Assembly: GCA_964449185.1 (NCBI GenBank)
Contig: CAYUYN010000001.1
Coordinates: 13,212-46,936, forward strand
DNA length: 33,725 nucleotides
Direction of reading: 5' to 3'
From: an uncultured Anaerolineales bacterium
GTDB lineage: Bacteria > Chloroflexota > Anaerolineae > Anaerolineales > UBA6663
Positions 13,097 through 28,397 of this stretch are shown here, piece by piece. Every line of letters begins with the position of its first letter. Position 1 is the stretch's first letter. The notes beneath the pieces are model-generated. The model saw nothing but the letters and a program-made list of their open reading frames with translations. It had not been told where the DNA came from and did not search any database. Both the position numbers and the translations under genes were made by a program.

Positions 13097-13226
13097 TTCT
13101 TGTCTCCTCCAAATTGCGCGGGATAAGGGTCCTGGGTCATTAGGCGCGTGAGCATTCGGGGCGTTCAAGGGTGTCTCATTGCACCTCCTTTCCCAGGTGC
13201 CCCCAGGGGCGTAGCGGAGCGCGACT

Positions 13227-14303: not shown

Positions 14304-14500
14304 ACGTTGGCTCCTCAGGCCGGAGGTGCGCCCGGCGTCGCCAGCGCGCCGCGCGTCACGCCCCACCTTGGTGAGTACCTTGCTATTGTGCAAGTGGTGC
14401 GGTGGGGCTGTTGGCCCGCGCACCGGCAGCCGGCCTCCCGTGTGTCGGCCCAGCCGATGTCTCGCCCGCTTTTGAATGACCTGACCCGGCCGGGCTAATT

Positions 14501-15280
14501 TTATGCCGCTGGGTTGTTCGCTTGTTCGGCTGCCTCTTCCGCCTGGCCGACCTTCTGCATGAGCTGCTCGATCGCTGCCACCGCGGCCTTGGTTTCAGCC
14601 GAGGCTTCACCCGCGCCGCTCATGTCGTGTCCCATTTCCTGCAGGAACCGTTTCACCAGGCGGACTGTGGCGCTCGCATCCGGCGCGTAGCCATCGGCGC
14701 CCACGCGGTTGGCGTACTCCTGTGTCACGGGCGCGCCGCCGACCATCACCTTGATCTGGTCACGCAGACCTTCCTTGGCCAGGGCATCCATATTCACCTT
14801 GAACATGGGCATCGTAGTGGTTAAGAAGGCCGAGAAGCCGATGACAGGCGGCGCGTGCTGCTTGACGGCGTTGACGACCTTATCGGCTGGGACGTTGACT
14901 CCCAAATCGACCACCGTGAAGCCGGCGCCCTCCAGCATGATGTTGCACAGGTTCTTGCCGATGTCGTGCAGGTCACCCTTCACGGTGAGCATCAAGACGG
15001 TGCCCAGGGGCTTGATGCCGCTCTGCACCAGCAGCGGGCGCAACAGGTTGAGCGCGGCCTGCATGGCCTTGGCCGCCACCAGCATCTCAGGCACGAAGTA
15101 GTCGCCGATCTCAAACAGGCGCCCGACTTCCTGGAGCGAGGGAATCAGCGCGCCGAACAGCAGGTCCATCGGATCCATGCCCAGCGCAATACCCTCTTCC
15201 GTCAGGGCTTTGACTTCCTTTGCGTGGCCGACGAGCGTATGCTCGTAGAGGCCCTTCTTAATCTCTTCTTCACGCCTCAT
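14501..15280 (-). CDS. Cobalamin-binding corrinoid protein (MtaC/MtbC/MttC-like methyltransferase cognate protein)
   Basis: It has an N-terminal helical cap followed by the B12-binding Rossmann domain, with the DxHxxG motif as GDLHDIGKN. The GGAGAGG ribosome site lies 8 nt upstream. The ~47-aa Ala/Glu-rich C-terminal tail is atypical. Confidence 0.9.
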   Translation of the reverse strand: MRREEEIKKGLYEHTLVGHAKEVKALTEEGIALGMDPMDLLFGALIPSLQEVGRLFEIGDYFVPEMLVAAKAMQAALNLLRPLLVQSGIKPLGTVLMLTVKGDLHDIGKNLCNIMLEGAGFTVVDLGVNVPADKVVNAVKQHAPPVIGFSAFLTTTMPMFKVNMDALAKEGLRDQIKVMVGGAPVTQEYANRVGADGYAPDASATVRLVKRFLQEMGHDMSGAGEASAETKAAVAAIEQLMQKVGQAEEAAEQANNPAA

Positions 15281-15351
15281 GTCGATCGCCTCTCCACAGT
15301 GATTGAGCTTGGCCGCCGCAGGGCAGGGGGCAGGGGGACAGGCTCACGGGC

Positions 15352-16380
15352 TCAATTCTTGCGCATATCCTCACAGGTCTGCACGATTTCCTTCAGGTTC
15401 TCCACCGTCGTCTGGAGCGGCACGGCGCACTCAGGCGCGATAATGTGCACCCCCGCGTCGATGGCGCGCTGGGCTTCGGCCCGCACTTCCGCCGGCCCAC
15501 GCGAGAACAGCGTCACCGGGTTGTTGACGTTGCCGGCCAGCTTGATCTTGCCCGCTGTTGCGGCGATGGCCTTGTCCGGGGCCACCTGCGACTCGAAATG
15601 GAAGGCGGCAAACCCGGCCTCGCGGAAATACTGGATGCGGTCCAGCGTCGGGCCGCAGCAGTGTAGGATGACCGGCGCCGGCACCTGTGGGATGAGCTGC
15701 TGATGCAGCGGCAGCAGGAAATCGCGGTACATGGTGTTGCGTACCAGGTCGCCCGTGGCGTGGTCGGCCCACACAATGGCATCGGCTCCGGCCTCCAGCT
15801 GGGCCTTGGCAAACATCACCGGCACCTGCTGCAGTACCTCGAGCGACCGTCGAACACGATCCGGGTCCAGGAGCGTGTCCAGCAGAAATTCCTGTACGTT
15901 GTAAAGGTGATAGGACAGCGTCCACGGCCCCATCACCTTGCCCAGGATCATCACCTCGTCGCCAAAGTGCTGCTTGAGCAGCCGGATCGCCTCAACGGCG
16001 CAGCTCACGTACTTGTCTTCCAGGAAGGAGTCGGGGAAGCCGTCCGGCAGCTTCAGCTCGACGTCCCGGTCTTGCCAGGGATGGGTGGAGGGCGTCGGCA
16101 TCATCGAGTCGTCCGACCAATCCACTTCACAGCCCAGCGCCTGCGCCTCTTGGGCGATGGAAAAGACCGGCATCACGGAGTCAAAGCCCATGACCTCATG
16201 GGCCCCGGCGGCCAGCGTGGCCATCGCTTCGGGCTCGGTATTGGCCGCCGGGAAGTGCGAGCCGACGATGTCCATCAGCTCATAATTGATCACCGACACA
16301 ATGCTCGCCGCGGGGGGGCGGTCCACCGGTTCACCCCGCAGGGCTGCCATAAAGCGTTGCCGGCCTGTCATGCGCATCAT
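15352..16380 (-). CDS. URO-D (uroporphyrinogen decarboxylase) family corrinoid-dependent methyltransferase (MtaA/MtbA/CmuA-N-like)
   Basis: 342 aa. The N-terminus reads TGRQRFMAALRGEPVDRPP. Putative Zn ligands are present as ILHCCG (H-x-C) and a distal APEC Cys, as in MtaA-type enzymes. It lies directly upstream of the corrinoid protein. The GGGAGG ribosome site is 7 nt upstream. Confidence 0.85.
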   Translation of the reverse strand: MMRMTGRQRFMAALRGEPVDRPPAASIVSVINYELMDIVGSHFPAANTEPEAMATLAAGAHEVMGFDSVMPVFSIAQEAQALGCEVDWSDDSMMPTPSTHPWQDRDVELKLPDGFPDSFLEDKYVSCAVEAIRLLKQHFGDEVMILGKVMGPWTLSYHLYNVQEFLLDTLLDPDRVRRSLEVLQQVPVMFAKAQLEAGADAIVWADHATGDLVRNTMYRDFLLPLHQQLIPQVPAPVILHCCGPTLDRIQYFREAGFAAFHFESQVAPDKAIAATAGKIKLAGNVNNPVTLFSRGPAEVRAEAQRAIDAGVHIIAPECAVPLQTTVENLKEIVQTCEDMRKN

Positions 16381-16461
16381 GTTGAGACCTCCCTAATCGG
16401 CCAAGCGTCCGGGTTTACGAGGTGCTCTGGCCGTTCACCCCGCAACACTGGTAAGATCTAG

Positions 16462-16668
16462 TTAATCGCTGTTGGCCACAGCCGCGCCTGGCTGGCCGTG
16501 GTCGCGCCCGCGAGGTGGAGTGTGGCGACCATATCCTGGCGCTGCAGCAATGGCTGGCTGGAGCGGGGGCTCGGGATTGAAGACAACCAGGCCAGCGACC
16601 TCCGCGATGCCGTCCAGCATGGACGAATATTGGCTGGGTAGCTGGCGTGCGAACCAGATGCGATACAT
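16462..16668 (-). pseudogene. Possible N-terminal remnant of a 2-hydroxyacid-dehydrogenase-like gene (very tentative)
   Basis: The 68-aa ORF reads MYRIWFARQLPSQYSSMLDGIAEVAGLVVFNPE.. It loosely resembles the N-terminal substrate-domain pattern M..I...R.LP.....L....EV. Continuing the similarity needs a frame change. No ribosome site was seen. Confidence 0.25.
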
Positions 16669-16755
16669 GGGCTCAGATCCACTCTGAACCCAGCCGACGA
16701 GTGCTGGCGGGCGCCGTCCCAGCGCCCTTATGCCTACTGCGAGACGTGTTCAGTC

Positions 16756-17505
16756 CTAGGTACCGTTCTGGCTTTGAGACCGCTGCGCGCCGTCGAGCAT
16801 GCGTACGCGCCCTTCGATGCCGTGCCAGTGCTGCGCCATCGCCGCCTGCAGCTCCGCAACGTCGCGGGCCTTAAGCGATGCCACGATTTCAACGTGGCGC
16901 TGATATGTGGCGGAGGGGTTGGCGGGCTCGGGCATCGCCACGCGTGCCTGGGCCTCGCGGTAAATGGCCCAGAAAACATCCAGAATCTTGCTCAGGACGC
17001 TGTTGCCAACGTTTTCGTACAGTAGTTGGTGAAATTCCTGGTCGTAATCCGCGACGTAACGACCTTGTTCCGCCACCGCGCGCATGCGTTCCAGCACGCT
17101 CTCCAGCCGCCGAATCTGATCATCCGTCACCACTTCCACAACCCGGTCCGCCATGCCATACTCGATGCGGTGGCGCACCTCCAGGATGTCGATAAGCTGT
17201 TTCAGGTCGAACTGCATGCCGTAGGCCAGATTGTCGAGAATAGAGTCAAACGAGAAGGCGCGCACGAAAAGGCCCGCCCCGGCGCGCGCCTCCAAGATTC
17301 CAACCGCCTCCAGGGCTTTGACGGCTTCCCTGAGCGAGTTGCGGCTGATGTTCAGTTGCTGAGCCAGCTCTGCTTCAGCGGGCAAGGGGTCCCCGGACTT
17401 CAACGAGTTTCCGACAATATAGGCTTTAATTTCTTCCTGGGCGGTTTGATGCAGCAACTGCTTGCGCTTGACTGCTTGGAGAGAGTGGACGGGTTTGATG
17501 GTCAT
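16756..17505 (-). CDS. GntR-family transcriptional regulator, FadR subfamily (winged HTH plus FCD domain)
   Basis: The start at the ATG at 17505 gives MTIKPVHS... The HTH reads LPAEAELAQQLNISRNSLREAVKALEAVGILEARAGAGLFV. The all-helical C-terminal domain is typical of FCD. It sits at the pivot between the divergent operons. Confidence 0.88.
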   Translation of the reverse strand: MTIKPVHSLQAVKRKQLLHQTAQEEIKAYIVGNSLKSGDPLPAEAELAQQLNISRNSLREAVKALEAVGILEARAGAGLFVRAFSFDSILDNLAYGMQFDLKQLIDILEVRHRIEYGMADRVVEVVTDDQIRRLESVLERMRAVAEQGRYVADYDQEFHQLLYENVGNSVLSKILDVFWAIYREAQARVAMPEPANPSATYQRHVEIVASLKARDVAELQAAMAQHWHGIEGRVRMLDGAQRSQSQNGT

Positions 17506-17612
17506 GACTAGTACCAAACGAACCGCATAGCGTGTTGCCGGTTGCGTCTTAGAGTCCTGGGCAGGCACTAAACAGCGTTAGGTTGGTGAGAAAGATGCAT
17601 CCGATTCAAGCT

Positions 17613-17641
17613 AAGATATCCCATATTAGGATATTTGTCAA
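17613..17641 (-). promoter_or_regulatory. Candidate sigma-70-type promoter directed leftward (gntR and possibly the minus-strand array)
   Basis: On the minus strand, TTGACA is the complement of 17636-17641. A 17-nt spacer follows, then TATCTT (complement of 17613-17618). It lies in the only AT-rich stretch of the window. Confidence 0.45.
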
Positions 17642-17648
17642 TTGACAA
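17635..17648. promoter_or_regulatory. Perfect 14-bp palindrome TTGTCAATTGACAA (candidate GntR/FadR operator overlapping both -35 boxes)
   Basis: This is a perfect inverted repeat. It fits the generic GntR-family operator form (GT-Nx-AC). It is built from two abutting, back-to-back TTGACA hexamers. Confidence 0.55.
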
Positions 17649-17671
17649 GGCGTGATGTCATAGGATATCAT
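17642..17671 (+). promoter_or_regulatory. Candidate sigma-70-type promoter directed rightward (P450 operon)
   Basis: TTGACA lies at 17642-17647. An 18-nt spacer follows, then TATCAT at 17666-17671 (5 of 6 matches to TATAAT). It is ~70 nt upstream of the P450 start. Confidence 0.5.
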
Positions 17672-17742
17672 ATATCTAATAACACAACAACACAAATTTT
17701 TCAAAATCGATGGTCTTTTACGGTGACGAGAGAGGCCAGATC

Positions 17743-18984
17743 ATGGTCCAGCCAGGCCACATCACGCACGACCCGTACGCAATCGGCAGCCGCGCCATGC
17801 TGCTCAACCCGTACCAGGTTTATCAACAGCTGCGGACTGAAGCGCCTGTCTACTGGTCCGAAGCGTGGAACGGCTGGGTCCTTACCCGCTACAAAGACGT
17901 TCAGGCCGTCTTGGGCGACGAACGCTTCTCCTCCGCGCGGACGTCGTCCGTGCTGAGCCAGCTGTCCGAGACCCAACGAGCCCAGCTGCCGGACCTCGAC
18001 CAATACATGTCGCTTTGGATTGGTTTCATCGACAAGCCCGAACACACGCGGCTGCGCGCCATTGCCGCCCAGGCGCTGGCGCCGCGCTTGTTCGAAGCCA
18101 TGCGGCCGCGCATCCAGGCGGTCACCGACCGCCTCATTGATCAAGTGCGGGCCAGCGGCCAACTGGACGCTATTGGGGATTTGGCCTACCGGCTGCCAGC
18201 GACCGTCATCGCCGACCTGATCGGCATTCCAGAAGAGCACCGTGCCCGTTTCAAAGCTTGTTCCGACCAGTTCGTGGCCTTTGCCGGACCCAGCCGCGTT
18301 GACTTCGAAAAGGCCCGCCAGGCTCAGGACGGCCTGCGGGCGATTATCGAAATTTTGCGGCCGGTCTACGCCGAGCGGTGCCGGGCGCCGCAAGCCGACA
18401 TCATGAGCGTTTTGATGCAGTGCGAGGTGAATGGCGGCTTGCTGAACGAGATGGAGGTGCTGATCCTGTGCACAGCGCTGGCCATTGGCGGGCACGAAAC
18501 CACCACCAACCTGATCGGGAACGGTCTACTGGCGCTTCTGCGCCACCCGGACCAGTTGGAAAAGCTGAGGTCTCAGCCGGAATTGATTGTGACGGCGGTG
18601 GAGGAATTACTGCGCTTCGAACCGCCGCTGCAGCGCGTCCTGCGAACCGCCAACACCGACGTCGAATTTGGCGGGCAGCAGATCCGCCAGCGGCAGTTCG
18701 TGTTGGCCATGGTCGCCGCGGCCAACCGAGATCCGGAGATTTTTACCGATCCTGAGCGCCTGGACGTCGAGCGCCAAGAGAACCGCCATCTCAGCTTTGG
18801 GCAGGGCTCCCGCTTTTGCCTTGGGGCGCAACTGGCGCGCATCGAAGGCCAGGTCGCCATCAGCACGCTGCTGCGCCGTTTGCCGGGCCTACGGCTGACC
18901 GGCTCGGAAGCCAACTGGCATGAGAACATGGGCTTCCGCGGTCTCAAAACCCTGCCACTGGCTTTTAGTGCGACGCTTCAATAA
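17743..18984 (+). CDS. Cytochrome P450 monooxygenase
   Basis: It has the heme-thiolate loop FGQGSRFCLGAQLA, the EELLR (ExxR) motif and the I-helix AIGGHETT. I prefer the ATG at 17743, with GAGAGAGG upstream. The ATG at 17710 is an alternative start. Confidence 0.92.
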   Translation: MVQPGHITHDPYAIGSRAMLLNPYQVYQQLRTEAPVYWSEAWNGWVLTRYKDVQAVLGDERFSSARTSSVLSQLSETQRAQLPDLDQYMSLWIGFIDKPEHTRLRAIAAQALAPRLFEAMRPRIQAVTDRLIDQVRASGQLDAIGDLAYRLPATVIADLIGIPEEHRARFKACSDQFVAFAGPSRVDFEKARQAQDGLRAIIEILRPVYAERCRAPQADIMSVLMQCEVNGGLLNEMEVLILCTALAIGGHETTTNLIGNGLLALLRHPDQLEKLRSQPELIVTAVEELLRFEPPLQRVLRTANTDVEFGGQQIRQRQFVLAMVAAANRDPEIFTDPERLDVERQENRHLSFGQGSRFCLGAQLARIEGQVAISTLLRRLPGLRLTGSEANWHENMGFRGLKTLPLAFSATLQ

Positions 18985-19017
18985 CGGCATTCATTTTTCA
19001 GCCCAGTAAGGTGACTC

Positions 19018-19779
19018 GTGCAAACTAACATAACCAAGGCCAAACTAAAGGCGGGCGAAACGGTGTTTGGCTGCTTCGTGCGCTACCCGGACGCCAGCCT
19101 GGCCGAAGTGCTGGCCTACTCGCCGTGGGACTTCCTGGTGTTCGACGGTGAACACGGGACGCTCGAGCCGCGCGACTGTGAGAACATGGTGCGCGCCGCC
19201 GAGCTGCGCGGCGTGACCCCCATCGTGCGCGTTACGACCAACCAGCCGTCGGTCATCCTGCGCCTGATGGATACGGGTGCCGGCGGCCTGCACGTGCCAT
19301 GGGTTAACTCCGCCGCCGAAGCCGAGGCCGTTGTCCGCTCGGTGAAGTATCATCCGCGGGGCATGCGCGGTCTGGCCGGCGTCCGCGCCGCCAACTACGG
19401 GCAGACTATTTCCTTTGGTGAGTATGTGGAGCAGGCCAATCGTGAGACTCTGGTGGTCATTCACATAGAAACGGCCGAAGCCGTCGATTGCTTGCCGGAA
19501 ATCGCGGCGACCGATGGCGTCGACGTGATTTTCATCGGGCCCACCGATCTTTCGCAATCATATGGCGTGCCTGGCCAGCCGCAGCATCCCCTGGTCCAGT
19601 CCGCCATCGACCGCATTGTCGACGTGGTGGCCCAGTCGAACGCGGCCCTCGGCATCATGGTGGGCAACGCCCAGGCCGCGCGCCATTGGCGAGAGCGCGG
19701 TGCGCGCTACATTACGATTGGGTTGGAATCAATCCTCATGCCCGCCATGCGTGATTACCTGACAGCCGCGCGGGCCTGA
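19018..19779 (+). CDS. HpcH/HpaI family aldolase, paralogue 2
   Basis: 253 aa with a GTG start. Family motifs are DFLVFDGEHG, VRVTTNQP, GAGGLHVPWV and IETAEAVDCLPEI. Confidence 0.85.
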   Translation: MQTNITKAKLKAGETVFGCFVRYPDASLAEVLAYSPWDFLVFDGEHGTLEPRDCENMVRAAELRGVTPIVRVTTNQPSVILRLMDTGAGGLHVPWVNSAAEAEAVVRSVKYHPRGMRGLAGVRAANYGQTISFGEYVEQANRETLVVIHIETAEAVDCLPEIAATDGVDVIFIGPTDLSQSYGVPGQPQHPLVQSAIDRIVDVVAQSNAALGIMVGNAQAARHWRERGARYITIGLESILMPAMRDYLTAARA

Positions 19780-19825
19780 CGCGGTTTGACAGCGGAGAGC
19801 GCCAAGCGCGAAGGGATCAGTCGCA

Positions 19826-21244
19826 ATGGAAATGTACCTCAATGGCCAATGGAGACAGTCGGCGGAGCGCATGCCTATCAGCTCGCCCTACACGGGTGAA
19901 ATAGTTGACACCGTACCCGTGGCTGACGCCGACGATGTGGAGCAGGCGCTGGCGGCGGCCGTGGAAGGGGCGGCGGCGATGGCGCGACTGACCGCCTACG
20001 AGCGTACTCAGATCCTGCACCGCGCGGCTGACCTCCTGGCGGCCAAGGTGGAAGACATTGCCCAGACCATCAGCCGCGAACAGGGTAAGCCGATTACCGA
20101 AGCGCGCGGCGAAGCCAGCCGCACGCCGGACTTTCTGCGCCTGTGCGCCTTTGAAGGCGCGCAATTGCGCGGTGAAACCCTGCCGCTCGATGCGCACGTG
20201 GGCACCAAGGGCAAGCTCGGCTTTACGCTGCGCCAGCCGTGCGGCGTCGTCCTGGCCATTACGCCGTTCAACTATCCGCTGCTGTTGGTGCTGCACAAGG
20301 TTGGCCCGGCCCTGGGCGCCGGCAACGCGGTGATCCTTAAGCCCGCCAATACCACGCCCCTGACGGCGCTAAAACTCACCCAGATCTTCTTGGAAGCGGG
20401 TCTGCCTGCCAATGGGCTGCAGTGCCTCACCGGCTCCGGGGCCTTCTTGGGGCCGCTCTTGTGCGCCGATGCGCGCGTGCGCAAGATCACGTTTACGGGC
20501 AGCACCGAGGTAGGGGAGCAGATTACGCGGGTGGCCGGTGTGAAGAAGCTTTCGCTGGAGCTGGGCTCGAACGCCCCCCTGATTGTGCTGCCCGATGCCG
20601 ACCTGGACGCGGTGGCGGCCGCGACTGCCATTGGCGGGTACGTCAATGCCGGGCAGGTCTGCATTTCAACCCAGCGCGTGCTCGTGCAGCAGCGGGTGTA
20701 TGCCGATTTCATCGACGCGCTCAAGCCGCGGGTGGAAGCCATCCAGGTGGGCGACCCGCTGGCAGCGGGCACGCAGCTCAGCGCCATGATCAGTGAGACC
20801 GAGGCCCAACGCGTGGAAGCCTGGATAAACGAAGCAGTGCTGGCGGGCGCCCGCGTGGTGACCGGCGGGCAGCGGCACGGCGCGGTCTTTGCCCCGACTA
20901 TCGTGGCGGACGTCAAGCCATCCATGCGGATTTCGCGCGATGAGATTTTTGGCCCCGCCGTCGCCGTCACGCCGGTGGACAGCCTGGACGACGCGCTGCA
21001 GCACGCCAACGACAGCCGCTATGGCTTGAGCGCCGGCATCTTCACGCGCAACATCGCCGACGCCATGCGCTTTGCGCGAGAAGCCGAGTCCGGCAACGTC
21101 CACATCAACTGGACCCCCCTCTGGCGCGCCGACTTTATGCCCTACGGGGGCTTCAAGGGCAGCGGCATCGGCAAAGAGGGCCCGCGCTACGCCGTTGAAG
21201 AGATGACCGAGCTGAAGACGGTGGTGATTCACGGGCTGGCGTAG
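19826..21244 (+). CDS. NAD(P)+-dependent aldehyde dehydrogenase (lactaldehyde/semialdehyde dehydrogenase-like)
   Basis: 472 aa. It has LELGSNAP (the catalytic Glu region), the catalytic Cys in NAGQVCISTQR, ITFTGST and PFNYP motifs. Confidence 0.9.
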   Translation: MEMYLNGQWRQSAERMPISSPYTGEIVDTVPVADADDVEQALAAAVEGAAAMARLTAYERTQILHRAADLLAAKVEDIAQTISREQGKPITEARGEASRTPDFLRLCAFEGAQLRGETLPLDAHVGTKGKLGFTLRQPCGVVLAITPFNYPLLLVLHKVGPALGAGNAVILKPANTTPLTALKLTQIFLEAGLPANGLQCLTGSGAFLGPLLCADARVRKITFTGSTEVGEQITRVAGVKKLSLELGSNAPLIVLPDADLDAVAAATAIGGYVNAGQVCISTQRVLVQQRVYADFIDALKPRVEAIQVGDPLAAGTQLSAMISETEAQRVEAWINEAVLAGARVVTGGQRHGAVFAPTIVADVKPSMRISRDEIFGPAVAVTPVDSLDDALQHANDSRYGLSAGIFTRNIADAMRFAREAESGNVHINWTPLWRADFMPYGGFKGSGIGKEGPRYAVEEMTELKTVVIHGLA

Positions 21245-21257
21245 AAACGAGGCGCAC

Positions 21258-22049
21258 ATGCGGGGCAATCGGGTCAAACAAAAGCTGCAGGCCGGCCAGG
21301 TGGCCACCGTCGTCGGCGGGTCGATTACCACGCCCGACATCATCGACTTCATGGGGCCGCTAGGCTTCGACGGTTTTTGGCTCGAAGGCGAGCATGGCCC
21401 GGTCGATTGGGGCGCCATTGGCGATCTGTCGCGCGCCTGTGATCTCTGGAATATGGCTTCCATCATGCGGGTGCAAGCTAACGAGCCCGGCCTGATCACG
21501 CGCACGATCGATCGCGGCGTGAGTGGTCTCGTGGTGCCGCACGTGAACACCCGCGCCGAGGCCGAGCGGGTGGTGCAGGCCGCCCGCTTTCATCCGCAGG
21601 GCAAGCGGGGCATTTATCCCAGCCGGCGCTTCTACGGCGACCCCAAGTATTTTGAGACGGCCAACGACGAAGTCCTGGTCGTCATCTTGATCGAGGAAGT
21701 TGAGGCCGTCGAGAACCTGGCTGAAATCCTGAAGGTCGAGCACATCGACGTATTCTTTGTCGCTCCGGGAGATCTGTCCCAATCCATGGGCCTGCCGATG
21801 CAGATGGACCACCCCGACGTGGTTGCGGTCGTCGGGTCCGCCATCCAGCAGATTGTGGCGGCGGGCCGCGTGGCGGGCGCGCTGGCTTTTGACCACAATC
21901 TGGACCGGTATTTGAGCTTGGGCGCTCGTTTCCTGTTCACGGTCTTTGATGCGTGGATCGCCGCCGGTGCCGTGGCCTACCTGGAGCGCCTAGCCGCGCT
22001 GCAGCGGGTTGAGCCCAACGAGGGGCCGGCCGCGTCCCAGCCTGGCTGA
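21258..22049 (+). CDS. HpcH/HpaI family aldolase, paralogue 3
   Basis: 263 aa. Family motifs are DGFWLEGEHGP, MRVQANEP, GVSGLVVPHV and IEEVEAVENLAEI. It starts 13 nt after the ALDH stop. Confidence 0.85.
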   Translation: MRGNRVKQKLQAGQVATVVGGSITTPDIIDFMGPLGFDGFWLEGEHGPVDWGAIGDLSRACDLWNMASIMRVQANEPGLITRTIDRGVSGLVVPHVNTRAEAERVVQAARFHPQGKRGIYPSRRFYGDPKYFETANDEVLVVILIEEVEAVENLAEILKVEHIDVFFVAPGDLSQSMGLPMQMDHPDVVAVVGSAIQQIVAAGRVAGALAFDHNLDRYLSLGARFLFTVFDAWIAAGAVAYLERLAALQRVEPNEGPAASQPG

Positions 22050-22100
22050 CTGGCAGGGTCTTGATACAGCGTATCTGCCAACCGAAAGGAACACCGGAAG

Positions 22101-23996
22101 ATGTCTGCTTCGTCCAAATCGACCCACCTCCGCCTGACGATGGCCCAAGCGCTGGTGAAGTACCTCCAGGTACAGTACAGCGAGCGGGACGGCCAACAAC
22201 GCCGCCTGATTCCCGCGGTCTTCGGCATTTTCGGGCATGGCAACGTCGCCGGATTGGGGCAGGCGCTTTTTGAATACGGGCAGGACCTGCCTTACTTTCA
22301 ACCCTGCAATGAGCAGTCGATGGTGCATACCGCCATTGGGTTCGCCAAGGCCAATCTGCGCACCGCCACCCTGGCCTGCGCCGCCTCCATTGGCCCGGGG
22401 TCGACCAACATGCTCACCGGGGCCGCCACGGCGACTGTCAATCGACTCCCCGTTTTGCTGCTGCCCGCCGATTACTACGCCACGCGCCACCAGGGACCGG
22501 TGCTACAGCAGATCGAGCATCCCGTCTCGGCCGACGTGAGCGTCAACGACGCTTTTCGGCCGCTCAGCCGCTTCTTCGACCGCCTGACCCGCCCGGAGCA
22601 TCTGTTGACCGCTCTGCCGGAGGCCATGCGGGTCCTGACGGACCCGGTCGAGACAGGCGCCGTGACCCTATCGCTGCCGCAAGATATTCAGGCGCACGCC
22701 TACGATTACCCGGCCCACTTCTTTGAGAAACGCGTGTGGCGCATCGAGCGGCGGTTGCCCGATCCGCAGCGGATCGAGGAGGCGGTGGCCTGGCTGAGGG
22801 CGGCCAAGCGTCCCGCCATCATCGCCGGGGGCGGCGTCCACTATGCGCAGGCCTGGGACGAGCTGGAGCAGTTGGCCAACGTCTGCGGCATTCCCGTGGG
22901 CGAGACGATGGCCGGCAAGGGCTCGCTGCGGCATGCCTCGCCGCTGCTGCTCGGCGGATTTGGCGTTACCGGCAACCCGGCCGCCGGCCGGATCATCAGC
23001 CAGGCGGACCTCGTCATCGGCATTGGCACCCGCCTCACAGATTTCTCGACAGGCTCGATGTCGGCCTTTCAGCACCCGGACGTTAAGTTCCTTAACCTGA
23101 ACATTGTCGGGCACGACGCCTACAAGATGGGCGCGCTCCCCATTGTGGCCGATGCGCGCGAAAGCCTGCGGGCGCTGCTGGCCGCGGCCCAGGCCGCGGG
23201 CCTCGGTCCCGATGCCACTTACGTGCGTGAAATCGAAGAGGCCAACGCGGCCTGGGCCGCGCAGCTGCGCGCCGAAGTGTCCGTGCCGAAACAGGGCGAG
23301 ATTATGAACCAGGGCCAGTTGATCGGCATGATCAATGCCCAGGCGCAAGCCGGCGACACGATTGTCGCCGCTGCCGGCGGGTCGCCCGGCGATCTGCACG
23401 AGATTTGGGACGCGACCGGCGGACGCAACTGCCACCTTGAGTTTGGCTTCTCCTGCATGGGTTATGAGATCCCGGCTGGTTTGGGCGTGCGGCTGGCGCA
23501 GCCCACCGGTGAGGTCTATGTGCTCATTGGCGACGGCACGTACCTGATGAACCCCACGGAGCTGGTGACCGCTCTGCAGGAAAGGCTCAAGATCATCGTG
23601 GTCATCTCGCAAAACCATGGCTATCAAGTGATCCGGCGCCTCCAGATGGCCCGTGCGGGCCGCAGTTTTGGTACCGAGTTCCGCGAGCGTGACGCCGCCT
23701 CCAATCGCCTGGAAGGTGCTTATCTGCCGATCGATTTGGTCAAGAACGCCGAAAGCATGGGCGCGAAAACCTGGCATGCATTCACACCCGACGAGGTGCG
23801 CCAGGCGCTGCAGGAGGCGCGGGGCGAGACCGGCGCCTGTGTTATTGTGGCCGAGACCGAAAAGCATCGCTATTTGCCGGGGGGCGGCATCTGGTGGGAC
23901 GTGGCCTCGGCGGAGGTATCGGGCGACGGTGTGACACAAGAGCTGCGGGCGGCCTACGAGGAAGAACGCCAGCGTCTGCAGCGTCTGTACTACTGA
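22101..23996 (+). CDS. iolD: 3D-(3,5/4)-trihydroxycyclohexane-1,2-dione acylhydrolase (ThDP-dependent, decyclizing)
   Basis: 631 aa. The N-terminus LRLTMAQALVKYLQVQY...IFGHGNVAGLGQAL...NEQSMVHTAIGFAK...GPGSTNMLTGAATATVNRLPVLLLPADYYATRHQGPVLQQIEH runs collinear with my recollection of Bacillus subtilis IolD (LTTAQALIKFL..IFGHGNV.G.GQAL..NEQGMAH.A..PADTFATRQPDPVLQQ.E). A ThDP GDG motif (LIGDGTYLMN) is present. Confidence 0.9.
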   Translation: MSASSKSTHLRLTMAQALVKYLQVQYSERDGQQRRLIPAVFGIFGHGNVAGLGQALFEYGQDLPYFQPCNEQSMVHTAIGFAKANLRTATLACAASIGPGSTNMLTGAATATVNRLPVLLLPADYYATRHQGPVLQQIEHPVSADVSVNDAFRPLSRFFDRLTRPEHLLTALPEAMRVLTDPVETGAVTLSLPQDIQAHAYDYPAHFFEKRVWRIERRLPDPQRIEEAVAWLRAAKRPAIIAGGGVHYAQAWDELEQLANVCGIPVGETMAGKGSLRHASPLLLGGFGVTGNPAAGRIISQADLVIGIGTRLTDFSTGSMSAFQHPDVKFLNLNIVGHDAYKMGALPIVADARESLRALLAAAQAAGLGPDATYVREIEEANAAWAAQLRAEVSVPKQGEIMNQGQLIGMINAQAQAGDTIVAAAGGSPGDLHEIWDATGGRNCHLEFGFSCMGYEIPAGLGVRLAQPTGEVYVLIGDGTYLMNPTELVTALQERLKIIVVISQNHGYQVIRRLQMARAGRSFGTEFRERDAASNRLEGAYLPIDLVKNAESMGAKTWHAFTPDEVRQALQEARGETGACVIVAETEKHRYLPGGGIWWDVASAEVSGDGVTQELRAAYEEERQRLQRLYY

Positions 23997-24104
23997 TTGC
24001 CCTGGCTCTGTGATGCAGGAGTGCCGGCGCCTCGATCCGGCACCGGCACCCATTGTCTACAACCTGGCTCGGCCCAAGTTTCCACCCATGCGAGGAGTCT
24101 CACG

Positions 24105-24989
24105 ATGAATGTTACCGTCGGCAGCGCGCCGGACAACTGGGGAGTCTGGTTTCCGAGCGACCCGGAACAAACGCCCTGGAATCGGTTCCTGGATGAGCTG
24201 TGCGAGGCGGGCTTTGAGTGGACAGAGCTGGGGCCATACGGTTATTTACCGACCGACACTTCTGTCCTGCGCCAGGAGCTAAGCCAGCGTGGGATTAAGG
24301 TGACAGGCACCTTTGCTATGGCTGACCTGGCGGATCCGGCCCAATGGCAGGCGCTGGAGCGGCAAGTCCTGGGGGCTGGCGAAGTGCTGGCCGCCCTGGG
24401 CGCCAAGTTCTTAGTGCTCATTGACGGCATCTACACCAATGTGTTTACCGGGGAGTTTCTCACTGCAGCGGAGCTGAACGAAAGCGGTTGGAAGCGGCTG
24501 ATTGAAACGACTCACAAGGTGGCCGACATCGCGCAGAGCCGTTTTGGCCTGCAGACCGTCTTCCACCCGCATGCTGAGACGCACGTCGAGTACGAGGCGC
24601 AAATCGAGCGCTTCTTGGCCGACACGGAGCCGCACATCAAACTGTGTCTGGACACCGGGCACCACGTTTATCGCGGCGGCGACGCCGTGCGCTTCATGCG
24701 CAAGCATCATGCGCGGATACCCTATCTGCACATCAAAAGTGTCGATCCGGTGGTGCGGGCCAAGGTGCAGGAGGCGCGCATCCCCTTTGGCGTCGCCGTG
24801 GGCCAGGATATGTTCTGCGAGCTCTCACGCGGCGCGGTCGATTTTGCTGCTTTCCGCGACGTCTTGCAGGACATCAATTATCAAGGCTGGGCCATTGTCG
24901 AACAAGACATGTACCCGGCGCCGTTTGACAAGCCACTGCCGATCGCGCGTCGCAACCGGCAATATCTGCGGGAGATTGGCATTGGCTAG
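24105..24989 (+). CDS. Xylose-isomerase-like TIM-barrel protein (sugar phosphate isomerase/epimerase family; IolE/MocC-like)
   Basis: The start at the ATG at 24105 has GAGGAG upstream. MNVTVGSAPDNWGVWF...[11 protein letters not shown]...HPHAETHVEY...EQD are typical of AP-endonuclease-2/xylose-isomerase-like barrels. It is a paralogue of 29908-30792. The exact activity (dehydratase versus isomerase) is not assignable. Confidence 0.8.
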   Translation: MNVTVGSAPDNWGVWFPSDPEQTPWNRFLDELCEAGFEWTELGPYGYLPTDTSVLRQELSQRGIKVTGTFAMADLADPAQWQALERQVLGAGEVLAALGAKFLVLIDGIYTNVFTGEFLTAAELNESGWKRLIETTHKVADIAQSRFGLQTVFHPHAETHVEYEAQIERFLADTEPHIKLCLDTGHHVYRGGDAVRFMRKHHARIPYLHIKSVDPVVRAKVQEARIPFGVAVGQDMFCELSRGAVDFAAFRDVLQDINYQGWAIVEQDMYPAPFDKPLPIARRNRQYLREIGIG

Positions 24990-25184
24990 TCTCCCTGCCG
25001 ACTGTCGCCCGCGACGCCGTCTGCCTCCGCAGTCATTGACCCGCTCACCCATTACCCTTTGGCCGGTGTGGCGTTGAGGCCATAGGGCGATGGTTCGCTG
25101 CCAGCCCGACGCCGCGGCCCTGCTCGGCTGCGGCCAGACACCACTGCGTGGGCTACAAAACTCATGGCGAGGACCTAATCCTTC

Positions 25185-26048
25185 ATGGAAACAGTGCTGC
25201 ACTCCAAGTCAAAGACGGTGGTGATCAGTCCCGAACAGCCCTTTGTGATGATCGGCGAGCGGATCAATCCCTCGGGCCGCAAGAAATTGGGCGCCGAAAT
25301 GGCGGCAGGGGATTACAGCCGCGTGCGCCGCGATGCCGAAATCCAGGTGGCGGCCGGCGCCCATGTCCTGGACGTCAATGCCGGATATCCTTTGGGAGAT
25401 GAAGCGGCCATGCTTGTGGAAGCCATTCACGTCGTCAGCGCGGTGACCGATGTGCCCTTGTGCATTGACTCCTCGTTGGTGGAGGCGCTGGAGGTGGCCC
25501 TGGCCGCCTACCAGGGCAAGGCGCTGGTAAACTCGGTGACGTGTGAAGATGAACGGCTAGAACGTATCCTGCCGCTGGTTAAGAAGTACGGCGCGGCCGT
25601 CATAGGGATGGCCAACGATGAGACGAGCATCTCTAACGACCCGGTTGAACGCCTGGCCGTCGCGCGCCGGCTCGTCCAGCGGGCGAGTGACTTCGGTATT
25701 CCAGCTGAGGACGTTGTCATCGATCCACTCTGCTTGACCGTAGCCGCCGATACACAGGCGGCCCTCATCACGTTCACCAGCATGCGCTTGATCCGCGATG
25801 AGCTGGGCGTGAATATGGTCTGCGGGGCCAGCAACGTCTCATTCGGTCTCCCGGAACGTTCGGCCATCAATGCCGCTTTCCTGTCCGTGGCCATGGCCTG
25901 CGGTTTGACCTGTGCCATCACCGATGCCACGAATGCGGTGATCAAGCAGGCGGTGCTGGCCAGTGATGTTCTGTATGGCAAGGACGACTACGCGGCCAAC
26001 TGGATTGCCCATTATCGCCAGGCCAAGCGGAACGAAGCGCATACGTGA
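25185..26048 (+). CDS. Pterin-binding methyltransferase (methyltetrahydrofolate:corrinoid / methylcorrinoid:THF methyltransferase, MeTr/AcsE/CmuB-like)
   Basis: 287 aa. FVMIGERINPSGRKKL...AGAHVLDVNAG...PLCIDSS...ALVNSV...GASNVSFGLP matches the dihydropteroate-synthase-like pterin-binding barrel of MeTr and the MetH Hcy-distal domain. Confidence 0.88.
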   Translation: METVLHSKSKTVVISPEQPFVMIGERINPSGRKKLGAEMAAGDYSRVRRDAEIQVAAGAHVLDVNAGYPLGDEAAMLVEAIHVVSAVTDVPLCIDSSLVEALEVALAAYQGKALVNSVTCEDERLERILPLVKKYGAAVIGMANDETSISNDPVERLAVARRLVQRASDFGIPAEDVVIDPLCLTVAADTQAALITFTSMRLIRDELGVNMVCGASNVSFGLPERSAINAAFLSVAMACGLTCAITDATNAVIKQAVLASDVLYGKDDYAANWIAHYRQAKRNEAHT

Positions 26049-27949
26049 AGCATCTCATCACCTTTCTGCCTCAGGCGCTGCTGACCCACGCTCCGTCAGG
26101 CACGACTGTATTCAATGCCGCCAACTGGGCCGGTTTGGCTATTGATAGCACCTGCGGCGGCCGGGGCACATGCGGCAAGTGCAAAGTGCAAATGCTGGAG
26201 GGCGCGCAGGCCGTGACGGAAGCCGATCTGCGCTATCTGTCTGAAACCGAGATGGCCGAGGGCTGGCGCCTGTCTTGTCGGGCAGCTATCCACGGTGAGT
26301 GCGTGGTGACTGTCCCGCGTATGCAGACCGCGCCCAAGGCGGCCCTGCTGGGTTACGGCCGGCATGTGGCGATCGATCCAAACGTGACCAAAGTTTATCT
26401 CGAGCTCGCGGAGCCTGGGCTCGAGGATCAGCGCTCAGATGTAAGGCGTGTCACCCAAGCCCTGGGCGTGGAGGGCTACGAGGCACGCGTCGTTCCCTCG
26501 GTCTGGAGAGCGTTGCCCAAGCTGCTGCGCGCGCATGACTTTGCCATTACCGCGGTGGTGTGCGGGAACGAGCTCATCGCCGTTGAGGCGGGTGATACCA
26601 CGGCCCACAGCTACGGTCTGGCGCTCGACGTCGGTACGACGACAGTGGTGGGGGCCATTGTCAACCTGAATACCGGGGCGGTGGCCGCCGTCCAATCGAC
26701 CCTCAATGGCCAGGCCATCTTTGGGGCGGATGTCATCTCGCGCATCAGCTATGCCATGCTGGAGCCCAACGGCCTGGCGGAGCTGCAAACCCGCATTGTG
26801 ACGACCATCAGCGGCCTGATCGACCAACTCTTGGCGTCTTCGGGCGTGCAGCGCGAGCTCGTGTACGAGGTGGTCGCGGTTGGCAACGCCACGATGCTCC
26901 ATCTGCTGCTGGGAATCGATCCCGAGCCCATCGGCGTGGGTCCTTTTATACCGGCGATTGAAGACAGTGTCACCTTGCCCGCCGCTGAGCTCGGTCTCAA
27001 GCTTCATCCGGAGGCGCGGCTGTCGACCCTGCCCCATTTGGGCGCTTACGTGGGCGCCGACATCGTGGCAGGCATCCTGGCCACGGGCCTGGCCCGCAGC
27101 CAGGACGGCCGGCTGCGCCTGTATATCGACGTGGGGACCAACGGTGAAATCGTCCTGGGCTCGACCAGGCACGGCAATCTGGCGACCGCCGCCCCGGCCG
27201 GGCCGGCCTTCGAAGGCGCCCAGATCGCCTGCGGCATGCGCGCCAGCACCGGGGCAATCGAAGGCGTGGTCATCACCGCCGACGTGGAGCTGCAGATCAT
27301 CGGCGGTGACGTGCGTCCGCTCGGTTTATGCGGTTCTGGCCTGGTGGACGCGGTCGCCGAGCTCATCCAGTGCGGCCTGGTGGACAAATCAGGCCGTTTG
27401 TTGACCCCGGCGCAGGCGCTGGGGCGAGGTGTGCCTGAGGCCCTGATTGCTCGTCTCGTAGAGATCAAAGGCGTGCGTGCCTTCCGGCTTAGCGGGCTCG
27501 AGGACAACATTGTGCTTACGCAGCCGGATATACGCGCGCTGCAGTTTGCCAAGGCCGCGATTGCCGCCGGGGCCAGTGTTCTGCTCGCCCGGCTGGGGGT
27601 GACGGCTGCCGACCTGCACGAGGTGCTGTTGGCCGGGTCGTTTGGCTCCTACATCAATCCGGCCAGCGCCCGCCTGATCGGCCTGGTGCCCTGGCTCGCG
27701 GTCGACCGCATCATCGCGGTGGGCAACACGGCCGGAGAGGGCGCTAAGATGGCGCTGTTGTCGTTTCGCGAGCGCGAAGCCGCCCAGCGCATCCCCGATT
27801 TCGTCGAGTACCTTGAACTGTCGGGGCGCCCCGAGTTTACTGATATTTTCACCGAGGCCCTCGCCTTTCCCACGCCGCCAGACCAACAGACGGAGGCCGC
27901 GCCAACGCCGGACGCCCACGCCACCGGCGCCCAGGGCCGGCCGCATTAA
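26045..27949 (+). CDS. RACo-type reductive activator of corrinoid enzymes (N-terminal [2Fe-2S] ferredoxin plus ASKHA/DUF4445 ATPase)
   Basis: 634 aa. It has the plant-type ferredoxin Cys motif DSTCGGRGTCGKCKV...LSCRA, followed by a long ASKHA-like region (LDVGTTTVVG, IDVGTNGEIVLG, GPAFEGA). The GTG start overlaps the methyltransferase stop (GTGA). Confidence 0.85.
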   Translation: MKHLITFLPQALLTHAPSGTTVFNAANWAGLAIDSTCGGRGTCGKCKVQMLEGAQAVTEADLRYLSETEMAEGWRLSCRAAIHGECVVTVPRMQTAPKAALLGYGRHVAIDPNVTKVYLELAEPGLEDQRSDVRRVTQALGVEGYEARVVPSVWRALPKLLRAHDFAITAVVCGNELIAVEAGDTTAHSYGLALDVGTTTVVGAIVNLNTGAVAAVQSTLNGQAIFGADVISRISYAMLEPNGLAELQTRIVTTISGLIDQLLASSGVQRELVYEVVAVGNATMLHLLLGIDPEPIGVGPFIPAIEDSVTLPAAELGLKLHPEARLSTLPHLGAYVGADIVAGILATGLARSQDGRLRLYIDVGTNGEIVLGSTRHGNLATAAPAGPAFEGAQIACGMRASTGAIEGVVITADVELQIIGGDVRPLGLCGSGLVDAVAELIQCGLVDKSGRLLTPAQALGRGVPEALIARLVEIKGVRAFRLSGLEDNIVLTQPDIRALQFAKAAIAAGASVLLARLGVTAADLHEVLLAGSFGSYINPASARLIGLVPWLAVDRIIAVGNTAGEGAKMALLSFREREAAQRIPDFVEYLELSGRPEFTDIFTEALAFPTPPDQQTEAAPTPDAHATGAQGRPH

Positions 27950-28370
27950 GCGACGCGATAGAGGGGCGGCAGACCCTGAGCCGGCCGGTTGGCGTTCTCG
28001 ACGCAGGCCAGGCCGCGCTTACGAGCTGTTCCCCGGGTCACGCCCGCCATGTGAGGGGGGCACAGCACATTGTCCATGCCCAGCAGCGGATGAGCCGGGT
28101 TGAGCGGCTCGCTCTCGAAGACGTCCAGACCCGCGCCACGGATCCAGCCCAACTGTAGCGCTTCGACCAAGGCCGCCTCGTCGACGCTCGCGCGTGCCCA
28201 TCGCCCCACCGGGGTCAATGACCAAGTCCACGCCTTTGAACTGGCCGGCCAGCGGCTGCTCGGGGGCTAGAAATTGCAGGGGATATTCGCCTTCCACGGC
28301 GGCTAGAAACTCGTCGGTCCAGACGTTCGGCGAAGGTGGGCGCTGATTGAGATAGAGTATTTTCAGGCGG
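27946..28370 (-). pseudogene. D-2-hydroxyacid dehydrogenase remnant: N-terminal and C-terminal pieces joined, NAD-binding core missing, frameshifted
   Basis: One frame reads LKILYLNQRPPSPNVWTDEFLAAVEGEYPLQFLAPEQPLAGQFKGVDLVIDPGG, an N-terminal domain. After a frame change it reads RASVDEAALVEALQLGWIRGAGLDVFESEPL..HPLLGMDNVLCPPHMAG, the C-terminal catalytic His region. No GxGxxG Rossmann segment lies between them. Confidence 0.6.
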
Positions 28371-28397
28371 CCTGTGTTGGTCTGGCAGCCGGGCGTC

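Follow-up and report, generated by a model that had tools for sequence, protein, structure and literature searches.

A predicted four-component corrinoid demethylase divided between two divergent operons in an oxygenase-rich catabolic island of an uncultured Anaerolineales bacterium

Corrinoid-dependent systems that pass a methyl group from a substrate to tetrahydrofolate (THF) are a hallmark of acetogens, methanogens and other strict anaerobes, and the Cmu system for chloromethane is the main aerobic exception. What such a system does in the company of oxygen-dependent catabolic enzymes is the question raised by the stretch of DNA described here, which comprises 33,725 nucleotides (nt) of contig CAYUYN010000001.1 from an uncultured Anaerolineales bacterium (assembly GCA_964449185.1) and is called the window in the following. 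A first-pass annotation made from the sequence alone had recognised all four parts of a cobalamin-dependent methyltransferase system in it, arranged as two pairs in divergent operons about 9 kb apart, and had proposed a demethylase that passes the methyl group of a methylated cyclitol or sugar to THF within a sugar-type catabolic island. The four parts were found to be intact and far above the family cut-offs, and the open reading frames (ORFs) called here have exactly the coordinates that had been given for them. The divided layout and the sugar-type surroundings stand as well, the latter with a set of orthologues in a distant marine locus as further evidence, and a demethylase with THF as acceptor is likely, a control region common to both operons speaking for a single system, but a methylated cyclitol is not the substrate to which the data point. 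Instead we favour, with somewhat better than even confidence, an inducible four-component methyl-X:THF demethylase whose substrate would be a small 2-hydroxy or 2-oxo acid with a methyl-thioether or methyl-ether group, formed from an imported carbohydrate-like compound.

Families were assigned by Pfam domains, NCBIfam model cut-offs and sequence matches to the Protein Data Bank (PDB). The four components, of which the two methyltransferases are termed MT I and MT II, are:

15352..16380, minus strand: MT I, a zinc methyltransferase of the MtaA clade with URO-D fold, 342 amino acids (aa) (PF01208, 2e-66)
14501..15280, minus strand: corrinoid protein with cap and Rossmann B12 domain, 259 aa (B12-binding 8e-27, B12-binding_2 7e-17)
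25185..26048, plus strand: MT II, a pterin-binding TIM barrel like MeTr/AcsE and predicted methyl-corrinoid:THF methyltransferase, 287 aa (Pterin_bind 1e-28)
26045..27949, plus strand: RACo-type reductive activase, 634 aa (Fer2, RACo_linker, Raco_middle and RACo_C_ter)

They correspond to what had been described before, namely a URO-D-fold methyltransferase with an H-x-C...C pattern, a corrinoid protein with a DxHxxG motif, a pterin-binding enzyme of the methyl-THF type and a [2Fe-2S]/ASKHA activase, and the profile searches suggested for them found every family well above its cut-off. MT I passes the NCBIfam model PRK06252 for a methylcobalamin:coenzyme M (CoM) methyltransferase with a score of 265 (cut-off 244) and stays slightly below the cut-off of TIGR01463 mtaA_cmuA (231, cut-off 235.4); the equivalog cut-offs of MtaA (240, cut-off 400) and MtbA (191, cut-off 600) are not reached. 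It shares 31-32% identity with the Methanosarcina MtaA (4ay7, 3e-54), and alignment places its residues H240, C242 and C318 at the zinc-ligand positions of MtaA and CmuA (His-x-Cys...Cys). These three residues are unchanged across 14 relatives, and mean column identity is 78% in an alignment of 14 diverse family members. The outcome that had been named as speaking against a methyltransferase, a true uroporphyrinogen decarboxylase (HemE), was not found: MT I scores 52 on TIGR01464, where the cut-off is 303, and its PDB matches to UroD proteins are 3e-11 or weaker, compared with 3e-54 for MtaA.

MT I belongs to a very tight family. In a pattern-based sample of 80 loci, orthologues with 69-91% identity were present in 79 loci and the next relatives had at most 57%, and when a library clustered at 50% identity was searched, the nearest full-length match among its representatives had 49% identity and only 173 clusters matched at E values of 1e-30 or below. 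The closest relatives (85-91%) come from metagenome-assembled genomes (MAGs) of Anaerolineales and Anaerolineae, and named members of the family come from Anaerolineae, Caldilineaceae, Rokubacteria, SAR324 and one Arenicellales MAG; the record names point to sponges, open ocean and subsurface water as habitats. No existing record matched the exact MT I protein sequence, and a tblastn search of plasmids with MT I gave only distant matches (CmuA with 24-25% identity, haloarchaeal hemE). Among the relatives with 29-42% identity, P0136, P0138, P0161, P0162, P0170, P0175, P0193 and P0254 are 583-686 aa long and matched over one half, and these are probably fusions of methyltransferase and corrinoid protein of the CmuA/MtsD type.

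The partner proteins are intact as well, and all four have kept their catalytic motifs. The corrinoid protein carries the motif D103-L-H105-D-I-G108, has a Moorella corrinoid protein, 1y80, as its nearest PDB entry (3e-51) and also matches a trimethylamine corrinoid protein and the corrinoid protein of the Desulfitobacterium O-demethylase (4jgi). MT II scores 311 on PRK07535, the model for methyl-THF:corrinoid methyltransferases (cut-off 259), and matches MeTr (2e7f, 1e-40) and the MT II of the Desulfitobacterium O-demethylase (4o0q, 5e-38). RACo consists of an N-terminal [2Fe-2S] ferredoxin domain followed by linker, middle and C-terminal ASKHA ATPase domains and aligns over its full length with the RACo structure 3zyy (9e-104, residues 6-609); its start overlaps the stop of MT II by 4 nt. 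Domain scans of the window gave no further corrinoid protein or corrinoid-dependent methyltransferase, and an Rfam scan of the whole window gave no cobalamin riboswitch or other riboswitch.

That the two pairs belong together is best supported by about 30 genomes and metagenome contigs of Caldilineaceae, in which the genes for MT I, corrinoid protein, MT II and RACo form one contiguous, co-oriented operon. The Caldilineaceae proteins are about 77, 73, 60 and 56% identical to those of the window, respectively, and because these orthologues share a single operon, the four window genes can be read as one corrinoid methyl-transfer system. The first-pass annotation had asked whether the divided arrangement recurs in relatives; the four genes are contiguous in Caldilineaceae instead, and the division was discarded as a conserved design feature. 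Several scars in the window bear on its origin:

16398..16668, minus strand: pseudogene scar of a D-2-hydroxyacid dehydrogenase, pieces aa 1-36 and 264-320 (tblastn with the L039 protein 2Hacid_c)
27952..28375, minus strand: pseudogene scar of a D-2-hydroxyacid dehydrogenase, aa 2-61 and 245-324 with an internal deletion, convergent with RACo
1236-1541, plus strand: C-terminal fragment of a D-2-hydroxyacid dehydrogenase, about 100 aa, the third truncated copy, convergent with the flavin reductase gene
22-873, plus strand: IS-transposase-like ORF that contains YVERLNATFRARL and weakly matches DDE_Tnp_IS240
28398-28619, minus strand: 73-aa ORF whose N-terminus MIPNKVRWGLLSTARINERLIP resembles by eye the Rossmann start of GFO/IDH/MocA proteins

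The first scar retains 57-58% identity in two frames, with a frame break and a stop in its translation, and its intact counterpart lies between the genes of GntR and MT I in relatives such as locus L039. At the position equivalent to the second scar, Caldilineaceae have an intact D-2-hydroxyacid dehydrogenase gene (2-Hacid_dh); the remnant itself resembles another subgroup (b/g) and was rejected as an orthologue of the 2-Hacid_dh that is the partner of MT I. Since three 2-hydroxyacid dehydrogenase genes have decayed here, an IS-like ORF is present and the Caldilineaceae genes are contiguous, the split appears to be derived, through a local rearrangement, and a mobile element seems to have truncated the left edge of the island. 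The 73-aa ORF sits between the second decayed 2-Hacid_dh and an intact GFO gene (28629-29846); tblastn with the two GFO proteins of the window gave no match to it, and it may be another gene fragment.

That the two halves are nevertheless under common control is suggested by the region from which they diverge:

17612..17672: symmetric divergent control region, from a promoter scan and a palindrome search
16756..17505, minus strand: regulator with GntR and FCD domains, homology-supported start ATG at 17505

This AT-rich region of about 200 bp contains two back-to-back sigma70-like promoters, which are predicted at 17642-17671 on the plus strand (11 of 12 matches) and at 17641-17613 on the minus strand (10 of 12). 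The perfect 14-bp palindrome TTGTCAATTGACAA (17635-17648), of which the window has one copy, holds the -35 element TTGACA of both outward promoters, and the -10 boxes lie in the outer inverted arms around it. The identical palindrome is found in L039, L040 and L041, in the intergenic region between the genes of an SBP_bac_5 binding protein and GntR and also upstream of a second ABC operon. The window regulator shares 66% identity over 247 aa with the GntR protein of L039, whose gene precedes those of a 2-hydroxyacid dehydrogenase, the URO-D protein and the corrinoid protein, and because the same 14-mer adjoins a regulator with such identity in the relatives, it is probably the operator of the adjacent GntR/FCD repressor. 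Judged by this region, both methyltransferase halves are likely to be controlled by one GntR repressor. The earlier picture of this regulator as a pivot between the arrays does not hold, as its gene heads the leftward array and is co-oriented with MT I, with the decayed dehydrogenase gene between them.

The leftward array continues with the genes for MT I, corrinoid protein, a luciferase-like two-component flavin monooxygenase (LLM), the SBP_bac_5 protein, four further ABC transporter components, PhyH, HpcH, PIG-L, GFO, Amidohydro_2, ApbA and a flavin reductase, and its junctions are mostly short gaps or overlaps. The rightward array consists of P450, HpcH, aldehyde dehydrogenase (ALDH), a second HpcH, IolD and an IolE-like barrel, followed after a gap of 195 nt by MT II and RACo. 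All intergenic gaps are 77 nt or shorter except for that one and another of about 145 nt between the binding protein and the first permease, and no convincing terminator was seen between the genes of either array.

Which methyl group the system handles can be approached through the genes that accompany MT I in other organisms. Neighbours were labelled by tblastn with the window proteins and with Pfam-annotated reference genes in all fetched loci, and were counted in 24 distinct contexts of ±6 kb, drawn from 62 loci of the tight MT I family. A 2-Hacid_dh gene is present in 20 of these 24 contexts and is mostly immediately adjacent to MT I; a corrinoid protein gene follows MT I in 14, a pterin methyltransferase and RACo are found in 7 each, and IolD in 1. 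One orthologous group among these dehydrogenases spans Caldilineaceae, Anaerolineales and Rokubacteria with 55-75% identity. The Caldilineaceae operon is preceded by an L-type Ldh_2 dehydrogenase gene and followed by the D-type gene, and in 'Candidatus Aquidulcis' (L033) the neighbours of MT I are instead a CitMHS carboxylate transporter and a FAD-linked oxidase (FAD_binding_4 and FAD-oxidase_C), which we take to be similar to GlcD or a D-lactate dehydrogenase. A carboxylate transporter, here of the TRAP type, is also part of the Rokubacteria locus L046, where three pairs of URO-D and corrinoid protein genes share one pterin methyltransferase and are accompanied by a methylenetetrahydrofolate reductase (MTHFR).

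A link to sugars and sugar acids, whose conservation the first-pass annotation had suggested testing, does recur in several lineages, although IolD does not travel with it. The most complete case is the marine locus L070 (Ga0310344_10000151, 365-21043), a single-strand super-operon of about 20 kb that repeats most enzyme families of the window. It carries genes for the pterin methyltransferase, an alcohol dehydrogenase, two AP_endonuc_2 and two GFO proteins, PIG-L and an ILVD/EDD sugar-acid dehydratase, which lies directly upstream of MT I, and continues with 2-Hacid_dh, SDR, two further AP_endonuc_2 proteins, LLM, flavin reductase, two HpcH proteins, creatininase and Amidohydro_2. Identity to the window proteins is 48-72% for nearly all of the products (PIG-L 30%), and the 21 kb retrieved for this locus showed neither a corrinoid protein nor RACo. 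Loci L001, L032, L039 and L047 share SBP_bac_5 importers, HpcH, Amidohydro_2, AP_endonuc_2, creatinase/M24 and GntR genes.

With respect to direction, the nearest characterised homologues of MT I are the soluble CoM methyltransferases of methanogens (MtaA, MtbA, MtsA), and MtaA, which has the same zinc ligands, transfers the methyl group from its corrinoid protein to CoM. With no sign of a CoM pathway in the window and a partner methyltransferase that depends on THF, MT I most likely acts on the substrate side. The three pairs and the MTHFR of L046 are in keeping with such a role and with methyl groups being passed into THF. Taken with the gene contexts, this makes a catabolic direction from substrate to THF likely. 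The Rokubacteria-type contigs L046 (1-16551) and L002, whose MTHFR comes with DUF5981 and which additionally encode a 217-aa protein without family, PhyH, MR_MLE and an alcohol dehydrogenase, can be read from their gene content as an island for the demethylation of several substrates in a non-acetogenic organism.

As for the chemistry of the substrate, His-Cys-Cys zinc ligands are, in this superfamily, the signature of S- and Se-methyltransferases, whereas O-methyltransferases have carboxylates or non-ligands in place of the cysteines (PMC10418091). The URO-D paralogues that are encoded in the same operons of relatives, one of 383 aa in L039 and two of 401 and 372 aa in L046, are only 19-21% identical to MT I, score 35-41 bits on the MtaA models and have H-x-D or lack the aligned second cysteine ligand; the PDB matches of the 383-aa paralogue are weak and to UroDs alone. 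A PDB search for MT I proteins of the O-demethylase/CdmB type, with E values up to 10, returned only MtaA and true UroDs, and for the MtaA-like Mlp protein CLJU_RS09375 about 17% identity to OdmB/VdmB has been reported (PMC10418091). Furthermore, the MtaA family includes MtpA, whose specific substrate is methylmercaptopropionate and which works with a corrinoid protein of its own (bioRxiv 10.1101/548461). Because of the zinc site and the MtpA precedent we slightly prefer a thioether over an ether substrate, although neither is decisive. Examples of thioether candidates are S-methyl-mercaptolactate or S-methyl-mercaptopyruvate, 2-hydroxy-4-methylthiobutyrate and methylthioacetate, and O-methyl-glycerate or a 2-O-methyl-aldonate would be examples of ethers.

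Thus the direct substrate of MT I may be a small anionic methyl-thioether or methyl-ether of a 2-hydroxy or 2-oxo acid, and not an intact cyclitol or sugar. A substrate of this kind would account for the use of one near-invariant MT I in many differently composed gene clusters, for its association with a D-2-hydroxyacid dehydrogenase and for the small anionic thiols, such as CoM, that are bound by its closest characterised relatives. By analogy with characterised homologues, from which the mechanism is taken, RACo would reduce the inactive Co(II) of the corrinoid protein to Co(I) with the help of ATP and its [2Fe-2S] domain, and MT I would bind the methylated substrate with the heteroatom on its His-Cys-Cys zinc. 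Attack of Co(I) on the methyl group would then leave the corrinoid protein as CH3-Co(III) and the product as a thiolate or alkoxide stabilised by zinc, and the MeTr-like MT II would hand the methyl group to THF. The substrate of MT I would itself be formed after the dehydrogenase, lactonase, dehydratase, aldolase and ALDH steps of the surrounding pathway.

Several observations weigh against this proposal and have to be set beside it. The zinc-ligand rule is a heuristic only, and in alcohol dehydrogenases a Cys-His-Cys zinc binds an alkoxide, so that the substrate may also be an O-methyl compound. All three 2-hydroxyacid dehydrogenase genes of the window have decayed; one may speculate that the ApbA/PanE-family 2-oxoacid reductase stands in for them, or else that the hydroxy-acid link is weaker here. 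Across the 195-nt gap before MT II, co-transcription with the iol-like genes is an assumption. Finally, several close relatives have no pterin methyltransferase or RACo near MT I, and in the SAR324-type loci L042 and L043 a 71% homologue of MT I stands alone beside a LysR-type regulator among housekeeping genes, without a corrinoid protein gene within 10 kb.

The catabolic surroundings in the window, whose P450, PhyH, LLM, IolD, IolE-like and GFO/IDH/MocA members had been named before and were all recovered by domain and equivalog scans, comprise the following genes:

13227..14423, minus strand: LLM (Bac_luciferase 3e-43), directly downstream of the corrinoid protein
7556..13252, minus strand: Opp/Dpp-type ABC importer with SBP_bac_5, two permeases and two ATPases, by domain matches
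6591-7532, minus strand: PhyH dioxygenase, by domain match
5759-6526, minus strand: HpcH aldolase, by domain match
4983-5819, minus strand: PIG-L/BshB-like deacetylase, by domain match
3951-4967, minus strand: GFO/IDH/MocA dehydrogenase, by domain match
3106-4038, minus strand: Amidohydro_2 protein, lactonase-like, by domain match
2111-3109, minus strand: ApbA/PanE-family 2-oxoacid reductase, by domain match
1561-2109, minus strand: flavin reductase, partner of LLM (Flavin_Reduct 3e-37)
17710-18984, plus strand: P450, first gene of the rightward array, by domain match
19018-19779, plus strand: HpcH aldolase, by domain match
19826-21244, plus strand: aldehyde dehydrogenase, by domain match
21258-22049, plus strand: HpcH aldolase, by domain match
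22101-23996, plus strand: IolD (equivalog score 833, cut-off 715)
23997-24989, plus strand: IolE-like TIM barrel (162, below the cut-off of 290)

This inventory suggests that the system works alongside oxygen-dependent enzymes and that it serves the breakdown of a carbohydrate-like or opine-like compound that is imported and probably N-acetylated. LLM and flavin reductase have orthologues with 64% and 48% identity in the L070 operon, and the importer has orthologues with 65-77% identity in L001. The nearest structure to the SBP_bac_5 protein is the opine-binding AgaA (6hlx, 3e-35), followed by GsiB/YliB and MppA; as binders of opines, glutathione and murein peptides all match at 1e-27 to 1e-35, the structures are not diagnostic of the imported compound. 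The longest ORFs overlap by 140-400 nt at the second permease (9425-10654 and 10249-11253) and at the second ATPase (7556-8521 and 8380-9432), both on the minus strand, and the starts of these two genes probably lie further downstream than the longest-ORF calls.

The original proposal, in which a methylated cyclitol or aminocyclitol such as pinitol, ononitol or the rhizopine-like 3-O-methyl-scyllo-inosamine is O-demethylated and the product enters an IolG/IolE/IolD-type pathway, is the alternative that survives best, but we consider it unlikely. It draws on the true IolD, the two IolE-like barrels and the GFO/IDH/MocA dehydrogenases of the window, on an IolD gene that is divergent from a 91%-identical MT I in L032, and on KduI/IolB, PfkB and GFO genes within 10 kb of MT I in L047 (there under a separate LacI gene) and L051; moreover, bacterial use of pinitol has no other established demethylase (PMC9788770). 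On the other hand, L032 is the single context among the 24 in which IolD adjoins MT I, compared with 20 for 2-Hacid_dh, and only IolD passes its equivalog model, whereas the IolE-like proteins (162 and 154, cut-off 290) and the IolG-like proteins (134 and 101, cut-off 355) stay below and model scans gave no IolB, IolC or IolJ within the window. The likeness to moc genes is at family level (GFO/IDH/MocA, AP_endonuc_2), and domain scans of the window turned up neither a MocD-like gene nor a Rieske gene. In addition, the zinc site of MT I is of the S-methyltransferase type and lacks the carboxylate of O-demethylases, which is rather what the H-x-D paralogues show if the published rule is applied (PMC10418091), the importer is of a peptide or opine type and not a sugar or inositol type, and Erwinia is reported to degrade pinitol via iolGEDBC without demethylation (PMC9788770). 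The first-pass annotation had added that no corrinoid route for such substrates was described, and this is borne out, as none was found for methylated sugars or cyclitols in the open-access and bioRxiv literature. An O-methyl-inositol or rhizopine may still be the substrate in this particular lineage.

Even less probable than the cyclitol proposal is a split analogue of methionine synthase, or another methylating system, that runs in the opposite direction to a demethylase, in which methyl-THF would methylate the corrinoid protein and the methyl group would pass to a thiol such as homocysteine, with RACo replacing reactivation by S-adenosylmethionine (AdoMet). The four proteins do map one-to-one on the modules of MetH, and matches to its modules were obtained for the corrinoid protein and MT II (1e-32 to 1e-36). 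MtaA itself is a methylcobamide:thiol methyltransferase, the conservation of 69-91% across phyla would suit a universal substrate, and the LysR-associated SAR324 homologue and the MTHFR in the Rokubacteria operon could be read in the same sense. However, the operons of the window and of L039 are controlled by a GntR operator and contain importers, aldolases and dehydrogenases, which is typical of inducible catabolism and not of housekeeping; L046 feeds one pterin methyltransferase from three URO-D/corrinoid protein pairs, and many loci are without a nearby pterin methyltransferase. MetH also differs in that its modules are fused, its zinc barrel is the Hcy-binding S-methyltransferase domain and not of the URO-D/MtaA type, and its reactivation depends on AdoMet and flavodoxin and not on ATP and RACo, although pterin, B12 cap and Rossmann, and zinc-thiol-barrel functions are all represented in the window proteins.

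We regard as very improbable a halomethane dehalogenase or methyltransferase of the Cmu kind that is unrelated to the sugar genes around it. CmuA and CmuB of Methylorubrum extorquens CM4 do combine a URO-D-like enzyme with the same H-x-C...C motif, a corrinoid module and a pterin enzyme in an aerobic host, and the TIGR01463 score of MT I is just under the cut-off. CmuA, however, is a methyltransferase-corrinoid fusion in another genomic context, whereas the window proteins are separate, and its N-terminal domain is 24-25% identical to MT I, compared with 31-32% for MtaA; a gaseous substrate would moreover leave the ABC importer, the GntR control and the conserved 2-hydroxyacid dehydrogenase unexplained. 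No RACo gene was seen in 7 kb around cmuA. Just as improbable are two unrelated pairs brought within 9 kb by chance: the pairs do lie in different operons of a visibly rearranged region, and in several relatives MT I and corrinoid protein occur without the other two nearby, but MT II (60%) and RACo (56%) are orthologous to members of the Caldilineaceae four-gene operon, MT II is just 35% identical to the pterin methyltransferase of the Rokubacteria cluster, one operator is common to both operons and the domain scans of the window gave no other corrinoid protein or corrinoid-dependent methyltransferase.

Returning to the small hydroxy-acid demethylase, its architecture is already known from systems of the O-demethylase, Cmu and Mtp kind. 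The O-demethylases of acetogens and Desulfitobacterium (OdmB/VdmB/MtvB) likewise consist of four proteins that move a methyl group from methyl-X via Co(I) to THF with ATP-dependent reactivation, and their Desulfitobacterium structures 4jgi and 4o0q are those matched by the corrinoid protein and MT II. They differ in that the window MT I is of the MtaA clade with His-Cys-Cys ligands and probably not of the aromatic O-demethylase clade (OdmB, VdmB, MtvB, MtoB, CdmB), that the host belongs to the Chloroflexota, that P450, PhyH and LLM are added to the operons and that the neighbours are sugar-acid enzymes and not Wood-Ljungdahl or aromatic-compound genes. MtpA and MtpC of Methanosarcina acetivorans resemble the window system by description, as an MtaA-family MT I acts there on a small S-methyl carboxylate with a dedicated corrinoid protein, but they are archaeal and methanogenic with an acceptor on the CoM route, whereas in the window the acceptor is THF and the family partner is a 2-hydroxyacid dehydrogenase.

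The nearest published concept is that of the Type 1 mlp clusters, which have 2-3 Mlp paralogues, with Mlp2 and Mlp3 as the minimum, besides a corrinoid protein and Ram, and have been proposed to serve methyl-sulfur or methyl-selenium metabolism; they are without a THF methyltransferase and are reported only from obligate anaerobes (PMC10418091). With one MtaA-like gene, a THF methyltransferase and oxygen-dependent neighbours, the window differs from them in these defining features. What appears to be new is that an MtaA-clade MT I occurs together with RACo and a THF methyltransferase in operons rich in oxygen-dependent enzymes, in Chloroflexota and in other non-methanogens, that the MT I family, which we did not find described in the open-access and bioRxiv literature, is tightly conserved and widespread, and that its pairing with genes for D-2-hydroxyacid dehydrogenases and sugar-acid enzymes is conserved.

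It is tempting to go one step further, and we do so tentatively and with less than even confidence: the family may represent a widespread MtaA-clade demethylase module, made up of MT I and corrinoid protein with a D-2-hydroxyacid dehydrogenase, a THF methyltransferase and RACo, by which oxygen-exposed bacteria would remove S- or O-methyl groups, while conserving them, from small hydroxy acids of methylated sugars, opine-like conjugates or organosulfur compounds. Its presence in Rokubacteria, SAR324 and marine Gammaproteobacteria is apparently due to transfer. We know of no enzyme in aerobes for such a demethylation step, for example from methylthio acids to mercapto acids. If a methylthio or methoxy acid is indeed the substrate, the system would fill a gap in the aerobic recovery of carbon, and possibly sulfur, from methylated sugars and organosulfur metabolites, and it would add a cobalamin demand to the carbohydrate turnover of Chloroflexota. 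In the window, an MtaA-type system shares its predicted regulon with a flavin monooxygenase, a P450 and a 2-oxoglutarate dioxygenase. Through the conserved operator, regulator and binding protein, both the inducer and the substrate are open to direct test.

Beyond RACo, the minus strand of the window (28629-33725) encodes a levoglucosan-dehydrogenase-like GFO protein (327 bits, below the cut-off of 650), an IolE-like barrel, Amidohydro_2, SDR and a last AP_endonuc_2 barrel that runs past the window edge. The GFO and TIM-barrel pairs of this set resemble modules for oxidative cleavage of glycosides or ethers, and its Amidohydro_2 (g29) and GFO (g27) proteins have orthologues with about 60% identity in the marine locus L070.

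Two further contexts of the MT I family are of a different kind. In the marine contigs L044, L045 and L064 a pair of URO-D and 2-Hacid_dh genes lies near genes for a rhodanese, a glyoxalase-II-like hydrolase, a gamma-glutamyl transpeptidase and an oxoprolinase-like protein, neighbours that hint at thiol or sulfur metabolism. In L058 (6492-11032) a homologue with 78-79% identity to MT I is located directly downstream of a PFL-like glycyl-radical enzyme and its radical-SAM activase, which is an anaerobic context, unlike the oxygenase-rich one of the window.

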